The notes: generated by a model not told the origin, from the letters alone. A stretch of 21,924 bases of DNA from a virus (IMGVR_UViG_2609459845_000023:1-21924); one strand, 5' to 3'; shown: positions 1 through 21,346, numbered from the stretch's first letter. Made by a program: numbers and translations.

Positions 1-1284
1 TTACTTCTTCGCCTCTGCAACCACTTTACTACCCACGCCGCGGTTATTGTATTCCCACATGCGGTTGTAGTTAGTGTCATTCAGATTGCGCTGTATTTCG
101 TCGTTATCATCTACGCTGCCGGTATTACCCGCAAACGGACGATTAGAGATCACCGCATCGGCCCACGGTTTAGCCGTGTTAAAACCTTCGTTGATGGCGC
201 TATCACGGATCACCACCTGACCGTTGGTATTGGCATCAACATCCAGCGAGCGGCCCAGTTGCGCCACACCATCACCGAAAGCATTGAAACGGCTGTTTAC
301 GGCGAGGAAACCGTAGTAAATGTTGGACAGCGTAGCCGGTGCAAACACATACGCTTCTTGCTGAGTACGTGAGTTCACCACGCGGAATTCGGTGTTATCG
401 AACACCACTGCGCCGCGACCAGAAACGATATCCACATCCCCTTCAATGTAGCTGTTGGTCACCAGCGTACGCGGCTGACGATTTGTTTCCAGACGGTTCT
501 GCACACCGCTGTTGGTGACAAAGAAGGTGTTCTGACGACCGAGAATGTTAACGTTGTTAATCTGTACCTGGTCACCATCAGTACGCAGTGCCACCGCCGG
601 ATGGTTACCTGCATCTACGCTATCGCCCAGCGTGTTTTCGATGGTCAGATTTTGCAGTTGCAGGCCATTGTTTTGTGACCAGAAGACCGCAGAGCAGAGA
701 ACACCGATACTGTCGCTGCGTTTGCTCTGGCAGCTATCGTACATATACCACGCTGGTTTACCTGGCATATATTTGCCGCGCGGGTTGACGTCGTGACGCC
801 AGTCGGCAGGGCTCATGCCACCATCAAGGGAAAGCCCAATCTTCACATCAATCGGTTTTTCACCTGTACCGTACAGAGTAATTCCACCCGGAGCGGCAGG
901 GACATATACCGTTCCCTGATACTCACCAGGCATCACGGCAATATACTGGCGCTTGTTGGTACGCTTGATAATTGCCGCATCTACCGCCGCCTGAATCGTG
1001 GTATGCGTTACACCTTGAGTGCCCGCCGGGCCGACAACAAAGTCAGGTTGCGCAGGCAGGGTAATCGGGGAAGGATTCCACGCTGCAGCACCTGGTGTCA
1101 GGGATGCAAAATAGTGTTGAGCATCGAAATTCTGCGCTTCTTTTGCCGACAGAATCGGGCGAGAAGAGGTACCAGGCGCGGTTTGATCAGAAGGACGTTG
1201 ATCGGGCGGGGTTGAGCTACAGGCGGTCAGCGTCACGCCAAAAGCCAATGCCAGCGCCAGACGGGAAACTGAAAATGTGTTCAC
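1..1284 (-). CDS. ybhC: host outer-membrane lipoprotein YbhC (pectinesterase-fold / acyl-CoA thioesterase family)
   Basis: 427-aa ORF from track; N-terminal lipoprotein signal MNTFSVSRLALALAFGVTLTAC (lipobox LTAC); recognised as E. coli YbhC, the gene flanking attB-lambda on the gal side; GC-normal composition. Confidence 0.85.
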   Translation of the reverse strand: MNTFSVSRLALALAFGVTLTACSSTPPDQRPSDQTAPGTSSRPILSAKEAQNFDAQHYFASLTPGAAAWNPSPITLPAQPDFVVGPAGTQGVTHTTIQAAVDAAIIKRTNKRQYIAVMPGEYQGTVYVPAAPGGITLYGTGEKPIDVKIGLSLDGGMSPADWRHDVNPRGKYMPGKPAWYMYDSCQSKRSDSIGVLCSAVFWSQNNGLQLQNLTIENTLGDSVDAGNHPAVALRTDGDQVQINNVNILGRQNTFFVTNSGVQNRLETNRQPRTLVTNSYIEGDVDIVSGRGAVVFDNTEFRVVNSRTQQEAYVFAPATLSNIYYGFLAVNSRFNAFGDGVAQLGRSLDVDANTNGQVVIRDSAINEGFNTAKPWADAVISNRPFAGNTGSVDDNDEIQRNLNDTNYNRMWEYNNRGVGSKVVAEAKK

Positions 1285-1330: not shown

Positions 1331-1345
1331 GCTTTTTTATACTAA
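1331..1345. other. attL: attL core (O) of lambda site-specific recombination; lambda P' arm follows to about 1418
   Basis: exact 15-bp lambda common core GCTTTTTTATACTAA; right flank GTTGGCATTATAAAAAAGCATTGCTTATCAATTTGTTGCAACGAACAGGTCACTATCAGTCAAAATAAAATCATTATTT matches the lambda attP P' arm; left flank ...GTTGAAGCCT is the bacterial B arm. Confidence 0.92.
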
Positions 1346-1418: not shown

Positions 1419-2489
1419 TTATTTGATTTCAATTTTGTCCCACTCCCTGCCTCTGTCATCACGATACTGTGATGCCATGGTGTCCGACTTATGCCCGAGA
1501 AGATGTTGAGCAAATTTATCGCTTATCTGCTTCTCATAGAGTCTTGCAGACAAACTGCGCAACTCGTGAAAGGTTGGCGGATCCCCTTCGAAGGAGAGAC
1601 CTGATGCTTTTCGTGCGCGCATAAAATACCTTGATACTGTGCCGGATGAAAGCGGTTCACGACGAGTAGATGCAATTATGGTTTCTCCGCCAAGAATCTT
1701 TTTGCATTTATCAAGTGTTTCCTTCATTGATATCCCGAGAGCATCAACATGCAATGTTGTTGGGATGGCAATTTTTACGCCTGTTTTGCTTTGCTCGACA
1801 TAAAGATATCCATCTACGATATCAGACCACTTCATTTCGCATAAATCACCAACTCGCTGCCCGGTAACAACAGCCAGTTCCATTGCAAGTCTAAGCCAAC
1901 ATGGTGATGATTCTGCTGCTTGATAAATTTTCAGGTATTCGTCAGCCGTAAGTCTTGATCTCCTTACCTCTGATTTTGCAGCGCGAGTGGCTGCGACCGG
2001 GTTTGTTGTTATATGGCCTTCAGCCATAGCCTCTCGGAATGCATCGCTCAGTGTTGATCTGATTAACTTGGCTGATGCCGCCTTTCCCTCGTCTATGTAT
2101 CCATTGAGCATTGCCGCAATTTCTTTTGTGGTGATGTCTTCAAGTGGAGCATCAGGCAGACCCCTCCTTATTGCTTTAATTTTGCTCATGTAATTTATGA
2201 GTGTCTTCTGCTTGATTCCTCTGCTGGCCAGGATTTTTTCGTAGCGATCAAGCCATGAATGTAACGTAACGGAATTATCACTGTTGATTCTCGCTGTCAG
2301 AGGCTTGTGTTTGTGTCCTGAAAATAACTCAATGTTGGCCTGTATAGCTTCAGTGATTGCGATTCGCCTGTCTCGGCCTAATCCAAACTCTTTACCCGTC
2401 CTTGGGTCCCTGTAGCAGTAATATCCATTGTTTCTTATATAAAGGTTAGGGGGTAAATCCCGGCGCTCATGACTTCGCCTTCTTCCCAT
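1419..2489 (-). CDS. int: lambda integrase (tyrosine recombinase)
   Basis: 356-aa ORF; MGRRRSHERRDLPPNLYIRNNGYYCYRDPRTGKEFGLGRD... matches lambda Int essentially full length; 3' end 74 bp from att core as in lambda. Confidence 0.97.
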   Translation of the reverse strand: MGRRRSHERRDLPPNLYIRNNGYYCYRDPRTGKEFGLGRDRRIAITEAIQANIELFSGHKHKPLTARINSDNSVTLHSWLDRYEKILASRGIKQKTLINYMSKIKAIRRGLPDAPLEDITTKEIAAMLNGYIDEGKAASAKLIRSTLSDAFREAMAEGHITTNPVAATRAAKSEVRRSRLTADEYLKIYQAAESSPCWLRLAMELAVVTGQRVGDLCEMKWSDIVDGYLYVEQSKTGVKIAIPTTLHVDALGISMKETLDKCKKILGGETIIASTRREPLSSGTVSRYFMRARKASGLSFEGDPPTFHELRSLSARLYEKQISDKFAQHLLGHKSDTMASQYRDDRGREWDKIEIK

Positions 2490-2974: not shown

Positions 2975-3403
2975 TTATTCAATATCTATTCCTGTAATAT
3001 CTTTTATCTTTTTCCTTGCAAAGCCTTTTGCTAGTGATTTTGAAACACTTATTAGTGTACTAATTCCCTCATCCTTAAAGTTTGTTTTTATAGTTTGCCA
3101 GACCTCCTTTTGACGCAAGTCAGCAATAAAATCATGCCCTCTTGCTGTCAACCTCAGTGGTACTTCGATCCAACTATATCCAACACCTTCCCCTAACTCG
3201 TTGGACATTATATGACCGAACCCAGGTTTTCCATCAACCCTGACTATTAATTCGTAGTCGCATAATAATCGCATATGGAAAATAAAATTTTGGTCATATC
3301 TATTAAAGCCATTATCCTCTAGTTCACTAAGCATCGTGTCAGGGCCATGAGTTTTTTCGAATGCGATAAGTAGATCTTTTAGATATTGCTGGTCTAATTT
3401 CAT
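2975..3403 (-). CDS. hypothetical protein (142 aa), AT-rich accessory gene
   Basis: track ORF; strong SD GGAGG 7 nt upstream of ATG; AT-rich by eye relative to the lambda core genes; no family recognised. Confidence 0.7.
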   Translation of the reverse strand: MKLDQQYLKDLLIAFEKTHGPDTMLSELEDNGFNRYDQNFIFHMRLLCDYELIVRVDGKPGFGHIMSNELGEGVGYSWIEVPLRLTARGHDFIADLRQKEVWQTIKTNFKDEGISTLISVSKSLAKGFARKKIKDITGIDIE

Positions 3404-3431
3404 TGCCGCCTCCGTGACATGTCACAGAGAT

Positions 3432-3770
3432 TTATATCATTAATTTTGTTTCGTGCCAGCCTTTGGTCACCCAGCATTGTGAGTCACCATTACACGGGCA
3501 TGAATTAACAGGAACTCTCTCGCCGCACTTACCGCAACGTTTTCTGCTGATCGATTTTATACGCCAGCGCACACGTGCATCATCCTGGCGGCTCAGTAAC
3601 GCGATGTACTCACCAAACTCGTAAGGCGCATGCCTGAAGCGGCGCGTGGCTCAGTTACGATCCAGCATTTCAATTTCCTGAGCATCAAGTACAAGCTCCA
3701 GCTTACGCATACCGGATGATGCTTGCTTGGCTCTCTGATCGACTTTGCGCTCTGCTGATGATTTAGCCAT
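3432..3770 (-). pseudogene. Cys-rich (zinc-ribbon-like) small protein gene interrupted by an in-frame TGA at 3651..3653
   Basis: ATG at 3770 with SD AGGAAAAG; 39 codons (MAKSSAERKVDQRAKQASSGMRKLELVLDAQEIEMLDRN), then TGA, then 72 further in-frame sense codons (ATRRFRHAPYEFGEYIALLSRQDDARVRWRIKSISRKRCGKCGERVPVNSCPCNGDSQCWVTKGWHETKLMI) with no internal restart ATG. Confidence 0.5.
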
Positions 3771-3963
3771 TCTGCTTTTCCTGCATTAGGAGAAAGACAA
3801 TCATGGCGGCGCGGATACTTCCGGTATCTTTTTACTCGATATTACCCTTCAATGGCACATACAAGAAGAGAGCCATCAACAGGAGTGAGTGAGGAATCGA
3901 CAACCAGCAACGCTTAATTATCTATAGTGTCGTATTTGCTTCATAAAATATGGCGAATAACAC

Positions 3964-4063: not shown

Positions 4064-4678
4064 TTATCTAAAAGTCTTTCCACTTTTAACGTCTAGGTAT
4101 ATTCTGTTCGACAACGTCATTCCTCCGCAATATGTGAAATAGATGTTTTTCCCCTTATTGCTTGATGCCATCCACCCTCCGATTTCCTTAAAGTCGCTTT
4201 CCGTGCAGACCCCTTCGTTTATTAACTTCCTAGCTGCCGAAGAAAACTCTTTTTTGTATATACGGTAGTCATCAGATCCTTTGATTAAAGTATCATCTCC
4301 GCTCGCATTTTCAGCAGGATCTGATGGCCTTTCACTGCTAAGATCACTAAGTTTAACCCATTCTGAAAACTTGCCATTGACGATTCCGTTTTTTCTTGTG
4401 CAGGATTTATTACCTTCTTTAATATATTCGCTTTCCCCTCCCACACATGAGGCTGAATATGGCTCAGTTATACGAACCCATTCACCTTTTTTTTCTAGAA
4501 AATCTACGCCTTCCCTGAAAAATAGTTTCCCAGCCACTCCACATTTACTTGAAGGGCAGGTATGTCTTTCCGTTCGATCAACAACAACCCAAAGTCTTGA
4601 TTCATTTTTTGCCATTGCCGATGGTATTTGAGATGAGACAATTAACGTAAGCCCTAAAATTAGTATTGATTTTTTCAT
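4064..4678 (-). CDS. secreted/periplasmic Cys-containing hypothetical protein (204 aa)
   Basis: track ORF; N-terminal signal peptide MKKSILILGLTLIVSSQIPSAMA; SD AAGGA 8 nt upstream; AT-rich. Confidence 0.75.
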   Translation of the reverse strand: MKKSILILGLTLIVSSQIPSAMAKNESRLWVVVDRTERHTCPSSKCGVAGKLFFREGVDFLEKKGEWVRITEPYSASCVGGESEYIKEGNKSCTRKNGIVNGKFSEWVKLSDLSSERPSDPAENASGDDTLIKGSDDYRIYKKEFSSAARKLINEGVCTESDFKEIGGWMASSNKGKNIYFTYCGGMTLSNRIYLDVKSGKTFR

Positions 4679-4814
4679 TGTAATTTCCTTTTACTTTTTA
4701 CAAAGCGTTTAATCATGGCTGATTATCTTTAAGCGTAGTAACAGCCTTGTGCGAAACATGTTACCAAATCGCCATTTCAGTGTATCCGCAGTTAGGCTGC
4801 CACTTCAAGGATTC

Positions 4815-5228
4815 CTAATTACATGGTACGTAAGCGTAAAATCCCGTTGGTTGTCGGGTAATAACTCTGATCAAATCTCCCTTGTCTTTTGCTCTTACGT
4901 ATGCAGCTCTTGTGTATTCAACCCAGGCCTCCAGTTCAGCAATACGCTTACTTCCATCCGAGATAACACCTTCTACTCACGCTGCTCGTTGAGTTTTGAT
5001 TTTTGCTGTCTCCAGCTCAACACGCAGTTTCCTCACCGTTAGCGCAATATCCTCGTTCTCCTGGTCGCGGCGTTTGATGTACTGCTGGTTTCTTTCCCGT
5101 TCATCCAGCAGTGTCAGCACAATCGATGGTGTTACCAGCTCATGGAAAAGGTCCGCGTCAAATCCCCAGTTGTCATGCATTGCCTGCTCTGCCGCTTCAC
5201 GCAGTGCCTGAGAGTGAATTACGCTCAC
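4815..5228 (-). pseudogene. hypothetical coiled-coil protein gene with in-frame TGA at 4977..4979 (83 codons + TGA + 53 codons)
   Basis: track ORF 4977..5228 (MSVIHSQALREAAEQ...AKIKTQRAA) continues in the same frame past TGA as VEGVISDGSKRIAELEAWVEYTRAAYVRAKDKGDLIRVITRQPTGFYAYVPCN to a TAG at 4815..4817. Confidence 0.5.
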
Positions 5229-5446
5229 TTCGAACCTCTCTGTTTACTGATAAGTTCCAGATCCTCCTGGCAACTTGCACAAGTCCGACAACCCTGAACG
5301 GCCAGGCGTCTTCGTTCATCTATCGGATCGCCACACTCACAACAATGAGTGGCAGATATAGCCTGGTGGTTCAGGCGGCGCATTTTTATTGCTGTGTTGC
5401 GCTGTAATTCTTCAATTTCTGATGCTGAATCAATGATGTCTGCCAT
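5225..5446 (-). CDS. TraR/DksA-family C4 zinc-finger protein (73 aa)
   Basis: track ORF with CxxC...CxxC spacing (CCECGDPIDERRRLAVQGCRTCASC) typical of phage TraR/DksA-type zinc fingers; stop overlaps the start of the downstream ORF. Confidence 0.7.
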   Translation of the reverse strand: MADIIDSASEIEELQRNTAIKMRRLNHQAISATHCCECGDPIDERRRLAVQGCRTCASCQEDLELISKQRGSK

Positions 5447-5495
5447 CTTTCATTAATCCCTGAATTGTTGGTTAATACGCTTGAGGGTGAATGCG

Positions 5496-5522
5496 AATAA
5501 TAAAAAAGGAGCCTGTAGCTCC
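5496..5522 (-). terminator. intrinsic terminator (GGAGC-TACAG-GCTCC + U-run)
   Basis: minus-strand read GGAGCTACAGGCTCCTTTTTTATTATT immediately downstream of the 5545..5760 ORF. Confidence 0.55.
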
Positions 5523-5544
5523 ATGATGATTTTGTTTTTCATGC

Positions 5545-5760
5545 TCACCGTTCCTTAAAGACGCCGTTTAACATGCCGATCGCCAGGCTTAAATGAGTCG
5601 GTGTGAATCCCATCAGCGTTACCGTTTCGCGGTGCTTCTTCAGTACGCTACGGCAAATGTCATCGACGTTTTTATCCGGAAACTGCTGTCTGGCTTTTTT
5701 GATTTCAGAATTAGCCTGACGGGCAATACTGCGAAGGGCGTTTTCTTGCTGAGGTGTCAT
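5545..5760 (-). CDS. hypothetical protein (71 aa from MTPQQENALRS; alternative upstream start at 5826 gives 93 aa)
   Basis: track ORF 5545..5826; the internal ATG at 5760 forms an ATGA overlap with the stop of a coupled 27-codon ORF; start uncertain. Confidence 0.5.
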   Translation of the reverse strand: MTPQQENALRSIARQANSEIKKARQQFPDKNVDDICRSVLKKHRETVTLMGFTPTHLSLAIGMLNGVFKER

Positions 5761-5840
5761 TGAACAAGTCCCATGTCGGCAAGCATAAGCACACAGAATA
5801 TGAAGCCCGCTGCCAGAAAAATGCATTCAGTGGTTGTCAT
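5757..5840 (-). CDS. putative 27-aa hydrophobic micro-protein (MTTTECIFLAAGFIFCVLMLADMGLVQ)
   Basis: hand-translated; ATGA overlaps at both ends (with the orf63-like stop and with the MTPQQ start); single hydrophobic stretch; alternative reading is the N-terminal extension of the 93-aa ORF. Confidence 0.25.
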   Translation of the reverse strand: MTTTECIFLAAGFIFCVLMLADMGLVQ

Positions 5841-6028
5841 ACCTGGTCTCTCTCATCTGCTTCTGCTTTCGCCACCATCATTTCCAGCTTTTGTGAAAGG
5901 GATGCGGTTAACGTATGAAATTCTTCGTCTGTTTCTACCGGTATTGGCACAAACCTGACTCCAATTTGAGCGAGGCTATGTGCCATCTCAATGCTCGTTC
6001 TTAACTCAACAGGAGATGCTTTGTGCAT
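5837..6028 (-). CDS. small early-left protein, lambda orf63-like (63 aa)
   Basis: track ORF; SD GGGGAG 6 nt upstream; size and position (between exo and xis) match lambda orf63; sequence identity to lambda not confirmed from memory. Confidence 0.5.
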   Translation of the reverse strand: MHKASPVELRTSIEMAHSLAQIGVRFVPIPVETDEEFHTLTASLSQKLEMMVAKAEADERDQV

Positions 6029-6183
6029 ACAGCTCCCCGTTTATTATTTATCTCCTCAGCCAGCCGCTGTGCTTTCAGGGGATTTCGGGTAACAGAAAGG
6101 CCGGGAAATACCCAGCCTCGCTTTGTAACGGAGTAGACGAAAGTGATCGCGCCTACCCGGATATTATCGTGAGGATGCGTCAT
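6001..6183 (-). CDS. small early-left protein, lambda orf60a-like (60 aa from second Met)
   Basis: track ORF 6001..6189; ATG at 6183 overlaps the exo stop (ATGA), giving 60 aa as in lambda orf60a. Confidence 0.45.
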
Positions 6184-6860
6184 CGCCATTGCTCCCCAAA
6201 TACAAAACCAATTTCAGCCAGTGCCTCGTCCATTTTTTCGATGAACTCCGGCACCATCTCGTCAAAACTCGCCATGTAATTTTCATCCCGCTCAACCACG
6301 ACATAATGCAGGCCTTCACGCTTCATTCGTGGGTCATAGTTGGCAAAGTACCAGGCATCTTTTCGCGTCACCCACATGCTGTACTGCACCTGGGCCATGT
6401 AAGCCGACTTTATGGCCTCGAAACCACCGAGCCGGAACTTCATGAAATCCCGGGAGGTAAACGGGCATTTCAGCTCAAGGCCGTTGCCGTCACTGCATAA
6501 ACCATCGGGAGAGCAGGCGGTGCGCATACTTTCGTCGCGATAGATGATCGGGGATTCAGTAACATTCACGCCGGAAGTAAACTCAAACAGGGCTCTGGCG
6601 TCATTCTCGTACTTTTTTCCCCAGGCCAGCGCCTTAGCGTTAACTTCCGGAGCCACACCGGTACAAATCTCAGCCAGCAGGGTGTGAAAGTAGGACATTT
6701 TCATGTCAGGCCACTTTTTACCGGAGCGGGGTTTTGCTATCACATTGTGAACTTCTGAAGCCGTGATGACGCCGAGTCGTAATTTGTTCCACGCATCATC
6801 TCCCTGTTCGACAGCTCTCACGTCGATCCCGGTACGCTGCAGGATAATGTCCGGTGTCAT
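6180..6860 (-). CDS. exo: lambda exonuclease (Red-alpha)
   Basis: 226-aa [67 protein letters not shown]..., recognised as lambda Exo. Confidence 0.97.
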
Positions 6861-7642
6861 GCAGCCACCTTCTGCTCAGAGGCTTTCTGTTTCAGGAATC
6901 CAAGAGCTTTCACTGCTTCGGCCTGTGTCAGTTCTGACGATGCGCGAATGTCGCGGCGAAATATCTGGGAACAGAGCGGCAATAAGTCGTCATCCCATGT
7001 TTTATCCAGGGCAATCAGCAGAGTGTTAATCTCCTGCATGGTTTCATCGTTAACCGGAGTGATGTCGCGTTCCGGCTGACGTTCTGCAGTGTATGCGGTA
7101 TTTTCGACAATGCGCTCGGCTTCATCCTTGTCATAGATACCAGCAAATCCGAAGGCCAGACGGGCACACTGAATCATGGCTTTATGACGCAACATCCGTT
7201 TGGGATGCGACTGCCACGGCCCCGTGATTTCTCTGCCTTCGCGGGTTTTGAATGGTTCGCGGCGGCATTCATCCATCCACTCGGTAACGCAGATCGGATG
7301 ATTACGGTCCTTGCGGTAAATCCGGCATGTGCAGGATTCATTGTCCTGCTCAAAGTCCATGCCATCAAACTGCTGGTTTTCATTGATGATACGGGACCAG
7401 CCATCAACGCCCACCACCGGAACGATGCCGTTCTGCTTATCAGGGAAGGCGTAAATTTCTTTCGTCCACGGATTAAGGCCGTACTGGTTGGCGACGATCA
7501 ACAATGCGATGAACTGCGCATCGCTGGCATCACCTTTAAATGCCGTCTGGCGAAGAGTGGTGATCAGTTCCTGTGGGTCGACAGAATCCATGCCGACACG
7601 TTCAGCCAGCTTCCCTGCCAGCGTTGCGAGTGCTGTACTCAT
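6857..7642 (-). CDS. bet: lambda Bet single-strand annealing protein (Red-beta)
   Basis: 261-aa [69 protein letters not shown]..., recognised as lambda Bet. Confidence 0.97.
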
Positions 7643-7647
7643 CCGTT

Positions 7648-8064
7648 TTATACCTCTGAATCAATATCAACCTGATGGTGAGCAATGGTTTCAACCATGT
7701 ACCGGATGTGTTCTGCCATGCGCTCCTGAAACTCAACATCGTCATCAAACGCACGGGTAATGGCTTTTTTGCTGGCCCCGTGGCGTTGCAAATGATCGAT
7801 GCATAGCGATTCAAACAGGTGCTGGGGCAGGCCTTTTTCCATGTCGTCTGCCAGTTCTGCCTCTTTCTCTTCACGGGCGATCTGCTGGTAGTGACGCGCC
7901 CAGCTCTGAGCCTCAAGACGATCCTGAATGTAATAAGCGTTCATGGCTGAACTCCTGAAATAGCTGTGAAAATATCGTCCGCGAAATGCCGGGCTGATTA
8001 GGAAAACAGGGAAGGGGGGTAGTGAATGCTTTTGCTTGATCTCAGTTTCAGTATTAATATCCAT
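7648..8064 (-). CDS. gam: lambda Gam (RecBCD inhibitor)
   Basis: 138-aa [77 protein letters not shown]..., recognised as lambda Gam. Confidence 0.95.
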
Positions 8065-8162
8065 TTTTTATAAGCGTCGACGGCCTCACGAAACATCTTT
8101 TCATCGCCAATAAAAGTGGCGATAGTGAATTTAGTCTGGATAGCCATAAGTGTTTGATCCAT
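7998..8162 (-). CDS. kil: host-killing / cell-division inhibitor Kil
   Basis: internal start of track ORF 7998..8288 at [39 protein letters not shown]...; start overlaps the cIII 3' end by 32 nt as in lambda; exact C-terminus and length versus lambda uncertain. Confidence 0.8.
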
Positions 8163-8295
8163 TTTTTGGGACTCCTGGCTGATTAAGTATGTCGATAAGG
8201 CGTTTCCATCCGTCACGTAATTTACGGGTGATTCGTTCAAGTAAAGATTCGGAAGGGCAGCCAGCAACAGGCCACCCTGCAATGGCATATTGCAT
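8131..8295 (-). CDS. cIII: lambda CIII (FtsH inhibitor, stabilises CII)
   Basis: hand-translated 54-aa [57 protein letters not shown]; SD TAAGGAG upstream; below the track length cutoff. Confidence 0.9.
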   Translation of the reverse strand: MQYAIAGWPVAGCPSESLLERITRKLRDGWKRLIDILNQPGVPKNGSNTYGYPD

Positions 8296-8367
8296 GGTGT
8301 GCTCCTTATTTATACATAACGAAAAACGCCTCGAGTGAAGCGTTATTGGTATGCGGTAACGCCGCGC

Positions 8368-18513: not shown

Positions 18514-18977
18514 TGTCTGATTCAGATTTTTTATATAGTGCCAAAAGCAACGCTTTTGTTTTCAAGGAAAGCTCTCTGTTAAAGACGGACGAATACAGTG
18601 ATGCTGTGCCGGTTGATATGGGTGTTTTCGCCGAATTTTACCCAACAGTTAAAGACGGCATGCGAAGGGTTGCAGGGCCAGACGGCATGCCTGCGTGGGA
18701 AAAAATTCCCGAGCCAACTAAAGAAGAACTGTTCGCGCTTAAACTGGCACAGGCCGAGTCAAAGAGAGATGCGTTAATCTCTGCGGCTAACGCATATATA
18801 AGCAGCGAACACTGGCCTTCTAAGCTCATTCTGGAGATCATCACCGATGAAGAGAAGGCGACCTTTAAAGAGTGGCTTGCTCATATCGATGCCTTGAAGA
18901 AAATGAAGTTTAATGATGAAGCAGCGATATTAAGTGACAGCCTTGAATGGCCGCCACGTCCTGCTACCGCGTCGTAA
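18513..18977 (+). CDS. tfa: tail-fibre assembly protein (Tfa family)
   Basis: 154-aa ORF; C-terminal region (...EELFALKLAQAESKRDALISAANAYISSEHW...EEKATFKEWLAHIDAL...LEWPPRP) resembles the conserved Tfa C-terminal domain ending in an EWP..P motif. Confidence 0.75.
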   Translation: MSDSDFLYSAKSNAFVFKESSLLKTDEYSDAVPVDMGVFAEFYPTVKDGMRRVAGPDGMPAWEKIPEPTKEELFALKLAQAESKRDALISAANAYISSEHWPSKLILEIITDEEKATFKEWLAHIDALKKMKFNDEAAILSDSLEWPPRPATAS

Positions 18978-20025
18978 TCTCCTGGCGTTTCAGCGCCGAA
19001 CGGGCCAGACGGATAAACGGTTTTTCAATTATCCGGTTAGCTGCGAATGCCATCATCAGAGAAGCAACAAGCATGCAGGGGACAAGGACGCCCCAGTGCT
19101 TATACTCCCCAATCGGAATAAATTTCTGTACCATCTGCATTACCAGCCAATGACAGAGATAAATGCTATATGTCAGGTCGCCAAGAATTGATAATGCTTT
19201 TATCTCTCCCGCCTTTGATTTATCCAGCATCAAAACGCCCACAAAAAATATTGCAGCAAAAAAGAACATTCCTTCTATACCGCTGGTATGGTCTGAGAAT
19301 GTGAAGAAAAAATAGAAAAATAAAGCCGATGCGAATATTGCTATAGTAATAGCAGTTAAGTTAGGAAGAATTAATTTAAACCTTTCAAATATCATTCCAG
19401 ACATAATCCCAAACGCAAACTCATAAAACATCGTTGAGCCTGCCAGCCTGATTAGACCATAAAACGGCGAGTCAGCAGGAGGGATAGCGGTGACTGTGCT
19501 GTTAAACGACAACCCTCCATTAAACGCAACCTGTAGCACTGCCGGGATTGCAATCAGCAGCGCGATACACAATGAACCTCGATACCGGGTCGTTATTGCA
19601 GCGCACATACAGAAAATAGCGTAGAACGATATTTCATAAGTCAATGTCCACGCGGGCGGTAGCAGATTAAATCCAAACGCCGGAGCGGGTAGTGTGTAAT
19701 CGTTGTGCAGAACCAGAAAACCCCTGGATAATTGTGTGGCAGGCGCAGGTTGCAATAACAACGAAACCAGTAACACAACAAAAAATAGCGGGTATATTCT
19801 GGCGAATCGTTTAACAATAAATACCGTTGGTCTGCATTCCTCAGGATTTATTGTTGACCAATAAATAATAAATCCAGAGATAATGAAAAAAATATCAACG
19901 CCCACCATGCCATTTGCAAATAAATTAGCAAACCAGCGCGGAGTAAAAAAAGAAAAATGGTACAGCACCACAAGTAGCGCTGCTATTCCACGAAGATACT
20001 GGACGGAAAATATTTTATTGTTCAT
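18964..20025 (-). CDS. acyltransferase-3 family integral membrane protein (O-acetyltransferase-like)
   Basis: track ORF 18964..20037 (TTG); likely ATG start at 20025 (MNNKIFSVQYLRGIAALLVVLYHF...); multiple hydrophobic helices; AT-rich; converges on tfa with a 14-nt overlap. Confidence 0.8.
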   Translation of the reverse strand: MNNKIFSVQYLRGIAALLVVLYHFSFFTPRWFANLFANGMVGVDIFFIISGFIIYWSTINPEECRPTVFIVKRFARIYPLFFVVLLVSLLLQPAPATQLSRGFLVLHNDYTLPAPAFGFNLLPPAWTLTYEISFYAIFCMCAAITTRYRGSLCIALLIAIPAVLQVAFNGGLSFNSTVTAIPPADSPFYGLIRLAGSTMFYEFAFGIMSGMIFERFKLILPNLTAITIAIFASALFFYFFFTFSDHTSGIEGMFFFAAIFFVGVLMLDKSKAGEIKALSILGDLTYSIYLCHWLVMQMVQKFIPIGEYKHWGVLVPCMLVASLMMAFAANRIIEKPFIRLARSALKRQEITTR

Positions 20026-20059
20026 TATGTGGCCCAATTTTCATTGAGCCACAATTATA

Positions 20060-21346
20060 TCAGAAAACCCCCTCAACCCACAACTGGCCATCAAAGCACA
20101 CCATTCTAAACAGACGTGATGCGGCGTTCCCGCCAGCCGCCACTACCAAATCAGCATCAAATATCGCCATGCCATTAGCCGGGTGGTACAGGTCGCCGAC
20201 AGCCTGTTTAAGCGTCAGATCACCAGCTCCCGGCGTTGCGCTTCGGACCATCAGATAAAACGAACTCCCGTCCGGGTAAACAGTTGGCAGCGCATTGATT
20301 GTCACGTTACCGGATAACCCCTCGGTGAAATAACAATGTCCAGTTTCAGGCCACCAGATTAAATCAGTAGCGTTGATATTGCTCGTTCCCGCTACATCAA
20401 TGAGCTTGTGGATTTTCCCTGGCTGTAAATCCCCGGAGTTTGCACAGAACAGCGCCGACAGTTGCTGCAATGCGGTTTCACTATCGCGCCAGTTCAGCAC
20501 ATTTGTAATAGTCCCGCGCTTAATTCTGCCGTCAAACAAAACGGGGCGCTCTGGCGTGAACGTCACGAAGTCTTTCGTGTCTACAAAATAAGTCCATTTT
20601 TTTGTGTCGAAAAAATCCGCATAGATTCTGATCGTGCCGTCCGGCAAATAAACCAGCGCCGGGCCTTCCGCCGCCTGAGTAAACGGAATTACTGATAATT
20701 TCGTGAACTGTCCTGAGAAACAATTTGAACAATACACCTCAATTTTTTTGGTGATTTCATCTTTTATTGTCAGGTAATACGTCTGGAATATTCTGGAAAA
20801 AACAGAATCAATCATGTTTTTTGGTTCGATATTTACCGCAACCGGATCGTAAAACTCCAGTCTCTCAACATCAGAACAGACAGAATAGAATGTTTTAAAA
20901 CTTTTGACATTTACACCTTTACTGTCAGTCTGATCGTTGTAATAACGCAGGCTGACTATCAGGAACAGATTTTCGTCATCAACAAACCATTCAGGAGCCC
21001 ACACGTCAGTGGTCACCAGATCTGAACCCGGTAATCGTTTCCCACAGACTGGCGTATCGCCAAGCTTAATTCGTACCAGTTCCCACACGGTTAAATCACG
21101 TGAGCGCCAGCAATCGACGTCATAAACGTTTTCTGTATATCCTGATACGGCTATTAACCACCAACCGTTGTGATAAATAATTGATGGGTCTCTCCCTAAA
21201 ACTTCTCCAGTTCCACCAATAGCCCAAAGGAATTGAGCCTTTATTTTTTCGAATCGTTCTCCATCATAAGATAATGCCAGGTTTACTTTTGAGCTTTGGT
21301 CACTTTCAAAAAAAGAACCAACAAACAGCGCGGAATTATTTTTCAC
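20060..21346 (-). CDS. hypothetical protein (428 aa), upstream partner of the acyltransferase
   Basis: track ORF; only possible start is GTG at 21346 (in-frame TAA two codons upstream) with weak SD; no signal peptide; family not recognised. Confidence 0.65.
   Translation of the reverse strand: MKNNSALFVGSFFESDQSSKVNLALSYDGERFEKIKAQFLWAIGGTGEVLGRDPSIIYHNGWWLIAVSGYTENVYDVDCWRSRDLTVWELVRIKLGDTPVCGKRLPGSDLVTTDVWAPEWFVDDENLFLIVSLRYYNDQTDSKGVNVKSFKTFYSVCSDVERLEFYDPVAVNIEPKNMIDSVFSRIFQTYYLTIKDEITKKIEVYCSNCFSGQFTKLSVIPFTQAAEGPALVYLPDGTIRIYADFFDTKKWTYFVDTKDFVTFTPERPVLFDGRIKRGTITNVLNWRDSETALQQLSALFCANSGDLQPGKIHKLIDVAGTSNINATDLIWWPETGHCYFTEGLSGNVTINALPTVYPDGSSFYLMVRSATPGAGDLTLKQAVGDLYHPANGMAIFDADLVVAAGGNAASRLFRMVCFDGQLWVEGVF

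Follow-up and report, generated by a model that had tools for sequence, protein, structure and literature searches.

A TGA at an otherwise invariant cysteine codon of a lambda-like Escherichia coli prophage gene probably marks a nonsense pseudogene

What is to be made of a reading frame that is well initiated, meets a TGA after 39 codons and then remains open for another 72? Such a frame occurs at 3432-3770 of the window, a stretch of 21,924 nucleotides of viral DNA (IMGVR_UViG_2609459845_000023:1-21924) that was analysed as a whole. The initial annotation had described a Cys-rich open reading frame (ORF) with a Shine-Dalgarno sequence, an ATG, 39 codons, a TGA and 72 further codons. All of these are present in the sequence, and the frame had been read correctly, with the strand (minus) left unstated; the Cys-rich motif quoted at that time corresponds to residues 78-100. 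In conceptual translation, window:3432-3770:- reads MAKSSAERKVDQRAKQASSGMRKLELVLDAQEIEMLDRN over 39 codons, the TGA, ATRRFRHAPYEFGEYIALLSRQDDARVRWRIKSISRKRCGKCGERVPVNSCPCNGDSQCWVTKGWHETKLMI over 72 codons and a terminal TAA. The features of the locus are:

3432..3770, minus strand: disrupted 112-codon ORF, from conceptual translation, a PHROG 536 match and full-length homologues
3775..3782, minus strand: Shine-Dalgarno-like AGGAAAAG 5' of the ATG, a candidate read in the sequence
3768..3770, minus strand: ATG start, the same start as in the annotated intact homologues of the alignment
3654..3767, minus strand: codons 2-39, the sole part expected to be translated, giving a 39-aa peptide with the start codon
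3651..3653, minus strand: premature TGA at codon 40 (Cys TGT/TGC in relatives), from the DNA alignment and codon table
3642..3642, minus strand: synonymous marker linked to the TGA, C at ORF nt 129 (Arg43 CGC), from haplotype comparison
3435..3650, minus strand: 72 in-frame codons past the TGA, the untranslated relic of the C-terminal two thirds, from translation
3570..3572, minus strand: in-frame GTG at codon 67, candidate restart of a 46-aa ORF, from the ORF list
3474..3536, minus strand: relic of the Cys cluster C79, C82, C91, C93, C99, from homologue conservation
3432..3434, minus strand: original TAA of the 112-codon gene, from translation and the DNA alignment

The AGGA of the disrupted ORF lies 8 nt from its ATG. 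Downstream of the stop, 72 stop-free codons have a random expectation of about 3% (our own arithmetic), and the joined frame matches full-length 112-aa proteins at E = 5e-65 and the PHROG 536 profile at E = 6.7e-49, a match that spans residues 1-111 once the stop is conceptually repaired. The open frame after the TGA is therefore not a product of chance.

The disrupted ORF is a copy of a 112-aa phage protein that belongs to PHROG 536 and is represented by p55 of phiV10 and gp49 of epsilon15. Homologues of the repaired protein number 299 at E <= 0.001, with most of the best 120 listed being 112 aa long, and collinear full-length tblastn matches were found in 46 isolated-phage records, including phiV10, epsilon15, TL-2011b, Enterobacter Tyrion, Klebsiella phages, Pantoea AH07 and Escherichia phage Chlobot. 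In phiV10, epsilon15 and AH07 the gene is annotated as intact, with 112-115 codons. Among 104 database homologues of exactly 112 aa, Cys40, Cys79, Cys82 and Cys91 are invariant (104/104), while Cys93 and Cys99 are each Cys in 103. The Cys cluster of the intact protein is probably a metal-binding module, for which Zn and an Fe-S cluster are the candidate ligands. By full-length similarity the repaired protein is a member of PHROG 536, but the window lacks the uninterrupted frame with six cysteines (40, 79, 82, 91, 93, 99), codon 40 being TGA; the gene is present here in disrupted form and is not a functional member of the family.

PHROG 536 is labelled "transcriptional regulator", and members also carry the label 'RepB-like replication regulatory protein'. 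We found no experimentally shown function for a PHROG 536-type member in the literature, and a literature search turned up no paper on epsilon15 gp49, the gp49 matches that titles and abstracts allowed to be identified being proteins of other phages. Pfam searches of the repaired protein and 67 homologues returned no family and only sub-threshold Cys-pattern matches; 34 of the 67 family members gave sub-threshold matches to Fer4_20 (a 4Fe-4S domain model), the best at E = 0.015. A PDB sequence search with the family profile gave nothing below E = 1. An AlphaFold2 model of the closest intact homologue, computed from the 67-sequence alignment, had a mean pLDDT of 62.6 and a pTM of 0.36, which is too poor for a fold search, so the secondary-structure pattern alone was used. 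This low-confidence model places a strand at about 22-28 and helices at 30-42 and 52-68, and the N-terminal half of the intact protein is accordingly treated here as a putative ribbon-helix-helix (RHH)-like DNA-binding unit. On the same model, the stop would fall in or at the end of the first helix and would remove the second RHH helix together with the entire Cys cluster. We infer that the intact protein is a small regulator.

The location of the gene was examined in its prophage context. An exact lambda att core, GCTTTTTTATACTAA, lies at 1331-1345 (+), where 0 would be expected by chance, and this lambda-type core between ybhC and int indicates a prophage at the classical att-lambda site. 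The features that flank the core and the disrupted gene are:

1-1284, minus strand: ybhC, on one side of the att core
1419-2489, minus strand: int, on the other side of the att core
2975..3403, minus strand: intact DUF2513 gene (Pfam E = 7e-11), directly 3' of the pseudogene in the same direction and followed by xis and int
3845..3910, minus strand: UmuD-like / S24 peptidase N-terminal fragment just upstream, 'DNA repair protein, partial' in the RefSeq record of ATCC 8739

From att, the minus-strand order is int, xis, a 55-aa ORF, DUF2513, the disrupted gene, the UmuD-like fragment, a 204-aa ORF, an Ea22-like gene, a TraR/DksA-like gene, exo, bet, gam, kil, cIII, N and a cI-like repressor. O/P-like replication genes and nin-region-like ORFs then follow on the opposite strand. 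The disrupted gene is thus a distal member of the early-left (pL) operon, at its int-proximal end, and the prophage is lambda-like.

Several other features of this neighbourhood were recorded. The UmuD-like fragment is longer in strain 97.3. In Chlobot (L005 1361-1678), an ORF annotated 'UmuD-like protein' overlaps the start of the intact 112-codon gene out of frame, and the annotation calls only the last 46 codons of that gene; these calls are probably misannotation. The 204-aa ORF at 4064-4678 (-) has a signal-peptide-like N-terminus (MKKSILILGLTLIVSSQIPSAMA...), several Cys and no Pfam match, lies in a stretch of low GC (38% vs 45-53% around it), and looks like a cargo ('moron') gene. The Ead/Ea22-like ORF at 4977-5228 (-) is only 83 aa long and covers profile positions 2-110 of 139, and its counterpart in ATCC 8739 is flagged as frameshifted and incomplete, so this may be a second damaged gene in the same operon segment. 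At 18964-21346 (-), downstream of nin-like and KilA-N ORFs, two large ORFs encode an Acyl_transf_3 acyltransferase of 357 aa (E = 5e-34) and a 428-aa protein with sub-threshold glycoside hydrolase 43/32-like matches. The pair may be surface-polysaccharide-modifying cargo, and the closest related prophage has an ompC-like porin in their place. Finally, the 28-bp spacer between the pseudogene TAA and the DUF2513 start holds a perfect 12-bp palindrome, GTGACATGTCAC, at 3414-3425, which overlaps the run-up to the DUF2513 GGAGG; about five such 12-bp palindromes are expected by chance in 22 kb (our own arithmetic), and this one may mean nothing.

The identity of the residue lost at codon 40 bears directly on how the stop arose. 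It had been suggested that TGG (Trp) was ancestral, but alignment to intact homologues gives TGT or TGC (Cys). In the DNA alignment the window and E. coli 97.3 carry TGA, Chlobot and phiV10 carry TGT, and epsilon15 and AH07 carry TGC, and all four of these isolated phages have an intact gene. Across 86 loci drawn from E. coli genomes, isolated phages and IMG/VR contigs, codon 40 is TGT in 65, TGC in 3 and TGA in 18. As intact relatives have TGT or TGC and never TGG, the ancestral residue is Cys, and on this alignment the lesion is a single T-to-A transversion, TGT to TGA, at the invariant Cys40.

The stop is therefore one substitution away from a sense codon, and it is also the minority allele, as would be expected of a nonsense pseudogene. 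Among complete E. coli genome records (20,395 records from 5,426 genomes), 34 + 28 = 62 contained exact 59-mers with TGA and 310 the one with TGT, which places the TGA allele in about 1% of genomes. With exact 26-mers, 18 IMG/VR contigs carried TGA and 118 carried TGY. The TGA 26-mer had zero matches in 185,579 species-representative genomes.

The TGA haplotypes share a second, silent difference. At nt 129 of the ORF, all nine TGA haplotypes have CGC and all 67 TGT/TGC haplotypes have CGT, and a linked synonymous C that is exclusive to TGA haplotypes indicates a single origin of the TGA allele. These alleles nevertheless fall into three haplotype groups that occur in different prophages at different integration sites. 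Group A comprises the window and ATCC 8739; group B is found in strain 97.3, in a different and heavily degraded element near sbmC; and group C starts with MTKSAAERK and has G80R and C99Y as well. One recombinant, L039, joins an intact-type 5' half to a damaged group-C 3' half. This distribution argues that the TGA allele, after its single origin, diverged and recombined. The proposal in the initial annotation of a fresh nonsense mutation can thus be kept as to the nonsense mutation, while the three diverged haplotype groups show that it is not fresh.

Hosts of the TGA allele differ in the condition of the surrounding element. Over this region, E. coli ATCC 8739 and 24 other complete genomes among the matches listed share the window sequence with 100% identity. 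ATCC 8739 itself was considered as the source of the window and rejected, the alignment being only partial: 1-4735 matches with 2 mismatches, 4745-8328 is 97.9% identical, and nothing aligns after about 8.3 kb. Coverage of the window by any one complete genome of the collection does not exceed 70%. ATCC 8739 holds a remnant of about 9 kb with two IS1 copies and several gene fragments, and the window prophage is fuller. Between the two aligned blocks, at 4736-4744, the window has 9 unaligned bases against about 767 bases with an IS1 transposase in ATCC 8739; at this alignment break (4735/4745) the window has the empty site of the IS1 insertion, which fits a 9-bp target duplication. Given that the window only partly matches ATCC 8739, a description as a dead remnant holds for ATCC 8739 and not necessarily for the window, whose element is not obviously dead in view of its N, cI-like repressor and O/P-like replication genes. 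In both ATCC 8739 and 97.3 the TGA allele sits among decayed genes, with IS1, IS3, a group II intron and partial genes. In 97.3, the group-B copy near sbmC lies at a different chromosomal site with IS3 and split integrase fragments around the pseudogene, and a group II intron D1-D4 RNA (RF02005, 184.9 bits) occurs at L002 2559-2784 together with a reverse transcriptase/maturase.

If the stop abolished function, TGA copies should bear the marks of relaxed selection, and several were found. Over the whole gene, the ratio of nonsynonymous to synonymous variants (N : S) is 13 : 3 for TGA haplotypes and 56 : 58 for intact haplotypes (Fisher p = 0.017), in counts that ignore phylogeny and leave out frameshifted haplotypes, against a crude neutral expectation for this gene of about 2.7 : 1. 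For codons 41-112 taken alone the ratio is 8 : 3 vs 30 : 33, which is not significant (p = 0.19). Seven nonsynonymous variants (A2T, K3R, A10V, E37D, A48S, R66H and G80D) and two synonymous ones are private to TGA haplotypes, and some of the variants among these haplotypes may be recombinational imports rather than new mutations. The near-invariant Cys99 is lost (C99Y), the near-invariant Gly80 is struck twice (G80R and G80D), and one TGA haplotype has an additional 5' frameshift; the frame stays open through the 72 downstream codons in 8 of the 9. Copies that keep Cys40 have been broken independently, by a stop at C79 (TGC to TGA), by a stop at W105 with a replaced 3' end, and by frameshifts in two haplotypes. 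These comparisons point consistently to a gene that would be dispensable and decays once it is stopped, and its repeated inactivation in prophages suggests that the PHROG 536-type gene is dispensable for lysogens.

Taken together, we regard the TGA copy as an ordinary nonsense pseudogene of an accessory, probably regulatory, early-operon gene, with a probability of roughly 0.88. The NCBI (RefSeq) pipeline independently lists exactly this 339-bp interval as a pseudogene ("hypothetical protein; internal stop") in genome records with identical DNA, ATCC 8739 among them, so that pseudogene status is already in public annotation. In the course of events that we propose, an intact gene would encode a protein of 112 aa whose N-terminal half is RHH-like and which has six conserved cysteines, and one T-to-A transversion would have changed Cys40 from TGT to TGA. 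Translation would then stop after 39 residues, within the first helix of the putative DNA-binding unit, and the TGA copy would yield no functional protein, a loss of function. The TGA would have arisen once, been neutral in lysogens and reached further E. coli prophages through inheritance and recombination, and the stopped sequence would then have gathered further damaging changes. Against this reading stands the fact that the TGA allele is neither rare nor very recent. A harmful lesion would not persist in this way, but a neutral lesion in a dispensable gene can.

Among the alternatives, the one that survives best is that the gene has been split, so that the 39-aa N-terminal peptide, the GTG-started 46-aa C-terminal product, or both are now independent small proteins. 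The initial annotation saw no in-frame restart and concluded that the C-terminal part could be made only by readthrough; this is right as regards ATG codons, but it overlooks the in-frame GTG at codon 67 (3572-3570), a candidate restart. The 46-aa GTG ORF does exist, and the annotation of phage Chlobot lists it as a gene despite the intact long ORF of that phage. PHROG 34005, a family of 40 positions, matches residues 1-40 of the repaired protein at E = 2e-28, which means that ORFs confined to the N-terminal part have been annotated more than once in phage or prophage genomes; this family was presumably built from truncated prophage ORFs of the kind seen in the window. Both the PHROG 34005 entries and the Chlobot call, however, are outputs of gene callers and not evidence of expression. 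Codons 1-39 have 5 N : 0 S in TGA haplotypes vs 26 : 25 in intact ones (Fisher p = 0.058), the opposite of what a conserved micro-protein would give, and the truncation cuts the predicted first RHH-like helix of the low-confidence model. The GTG is preceded only by a poorly spaced AGGA, 10 nt upstream, and Cys99 is missing from the 46-aa product in many TGA copies. We consider a split gene improbable.

Slightly less probable still is functional readthrough of the UGA at a low level, with the stop serving as a dosage valve for the full-length protein. UGA is the leakiest stop in E. coli, the open frame persists in 8/9 TGA haplotypes, and the allele itself has persisted and spread. With so few substitutions, however, a 72-codon open frame is easily kept by chance, and the stop is absent from 68/86 loci and from 104/104 full-length proteins, so that the design is not a conserved one. 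By ordinary readthrough E. coli places Trp at a UGA, and here this would replace a Cys that is invariant in 104/104 homologues. TGA copies appear unconstrained, both Cys99 and Gly80 having been lost, and folding gave no notable RNA structure past the stop: a stretch of 63 nt around and beyond it has the same MFE as its shuffled versions (z = 0.26). At +4 the base is G, for which there is no bacterial consensus for scoring. The B-type RF2 is probably the common form in natural isolates, and this is the form with which the extension products of K-12 are lost. Such UGA extension products have been demonstrated in K-12, where they depend on a weak RF2, and they vanish when RF2 is the more active form from E. 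coli B (PMC5373646). The earlier idea that low-level UGA readthrough is being used at this locus therefore finds no backing in stop conservation or constraint. Equally doubtful, and disfavoured by the data, is the related idea that the TGA allele was kept in three haplotype groups because the UGA is tolerated or mildly useful. Under that idea, rare near-cognate decoding could provide a trickle of full-length regulator, or the 39-aa fragment could serve as a small peptide, dominant-negative or independent, with a modulating effect on the intact protein made by co-resident phages.

Selenoprotein genes are classically recognised by a UGA that lines up with a Cys conserved in homologues. Decoding of codon 40 as selenocysteine (Sec) by SelB, giving a Sec-for-Cys variant, was tested because the UGA aligns with Cys of the homologues and the Sec machinery exists in E. 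coli, where 5,419 of the 5,426 genomes contain the fdhF SECIS. E. coli SelB requires G23 U24 and a bulged U17, and the window allele has A23 U24 in the hairpin that follows its stop. This is a 4-bp hairpin (AGGC/GCCU) with a loop that starts 19 nt past the UGA, within the 16-37 nt range given for the apical loop of a bacterial SECIS (PMC10778597). The hairpin is weak, and its tetraloop varies among TGA haplotypes (AUGC, AUUC and GUGC); the GUGC loop is ancestral and also occurs in Cys-encoding alleles, so that the TGA brought no SECIS-like feature with it. In Rfam scans at E <= 10, no SECIS was found in the window allele or in the loci of the other two TGA groups, while the E. coli fdhF SECIS, used as a positive control, was recovered as SECIS_2 with 87.1 bits and E = 3e-18; the scan of the region returned only two chance-level snoRNA matches on the opposite strand. 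Further conserved residues 3' of the UGA have been lost, and the 8 N : 3 S there gives no sign of purifying selection. The selenocysteine reading is not supported, and we judge it very improbable. Least credible of all is an error of sequencing or assembly in the last base of codon 40. It has in its favour that the difference is limited to one base and no other support, and it is refuted by the population breadth of the TGA allele: 62 complete genome records, produced in many laboratories and on many platforms, contain identical TGA 59-mers, 18 IMG/VR contigs contain the TGA 26-mer, and the TGA never occurs without the nt-129 marker.

As a nonsense pseudogene, the locus carries little biological weight, being one more decaying accessory gene of an E. 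coli prophage. Its value is mostly corrective, in that the lost residue is an invariant Cys and not Trp. A UGA at a Cys codon mimics the selenoprotein signature, and for this reason an explicit SECIS test with a positive control was needed. PHROG 536-type genes also adjoin xis/int in many enterobacterial temperate phages, and the family is uncharacterised.

The nearest known systems are the intact relatives phiV10 p55, epsilon15 gp49 and AH07 gp31. These are collinear with the window ORF over 112 codons at 56-86% amino acid identity, share its start codon, Cys cluster and stop position, and likewise lie int-proximal in the early operon, followed directly by xis/int or the end of the genome. 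They differ from the window copy in being intact with Cys at codon 40, where the window has TGA and 39 residues are expected. A more distant likeness is to CopB / 'LexA regulated protein' (NF008671), to which residues 9-47 of the repaired protein weakly match at profile positions 38-76; at E = 0.041 and 14 bits, against a 62-bit cut-off, membership is not established. The RHH-type DNA-binding unit of CopB-like regulators fits the strand-helix-helix pattern of the AlphaFold2 model, but CopB-like proteins are without the C-terminal Cys cluster of the window family. With selenoprotein genes of the fdhF type the window shares an in-frame UGA at a Cys position and a host with Sec machinery; it differs in having no SECIS, a UGA that is not conserved in the family and a decaying downstream sequence, and its context is a small Cys-cluster protein rather than a redox enzyme. 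The closest fit is with ordinary prophage nonsense pseudogenes, which share with the TGA copy a one-base change, a minority allele, neutral-looking evolution, independent lesions in the gene and, in some hosts, nearby IS elements and gene fragments. Nothing material sets the TGA copy apart from them, and it is mildly unusual only in its three haplotype groups and in the invariant Cys that was struck.
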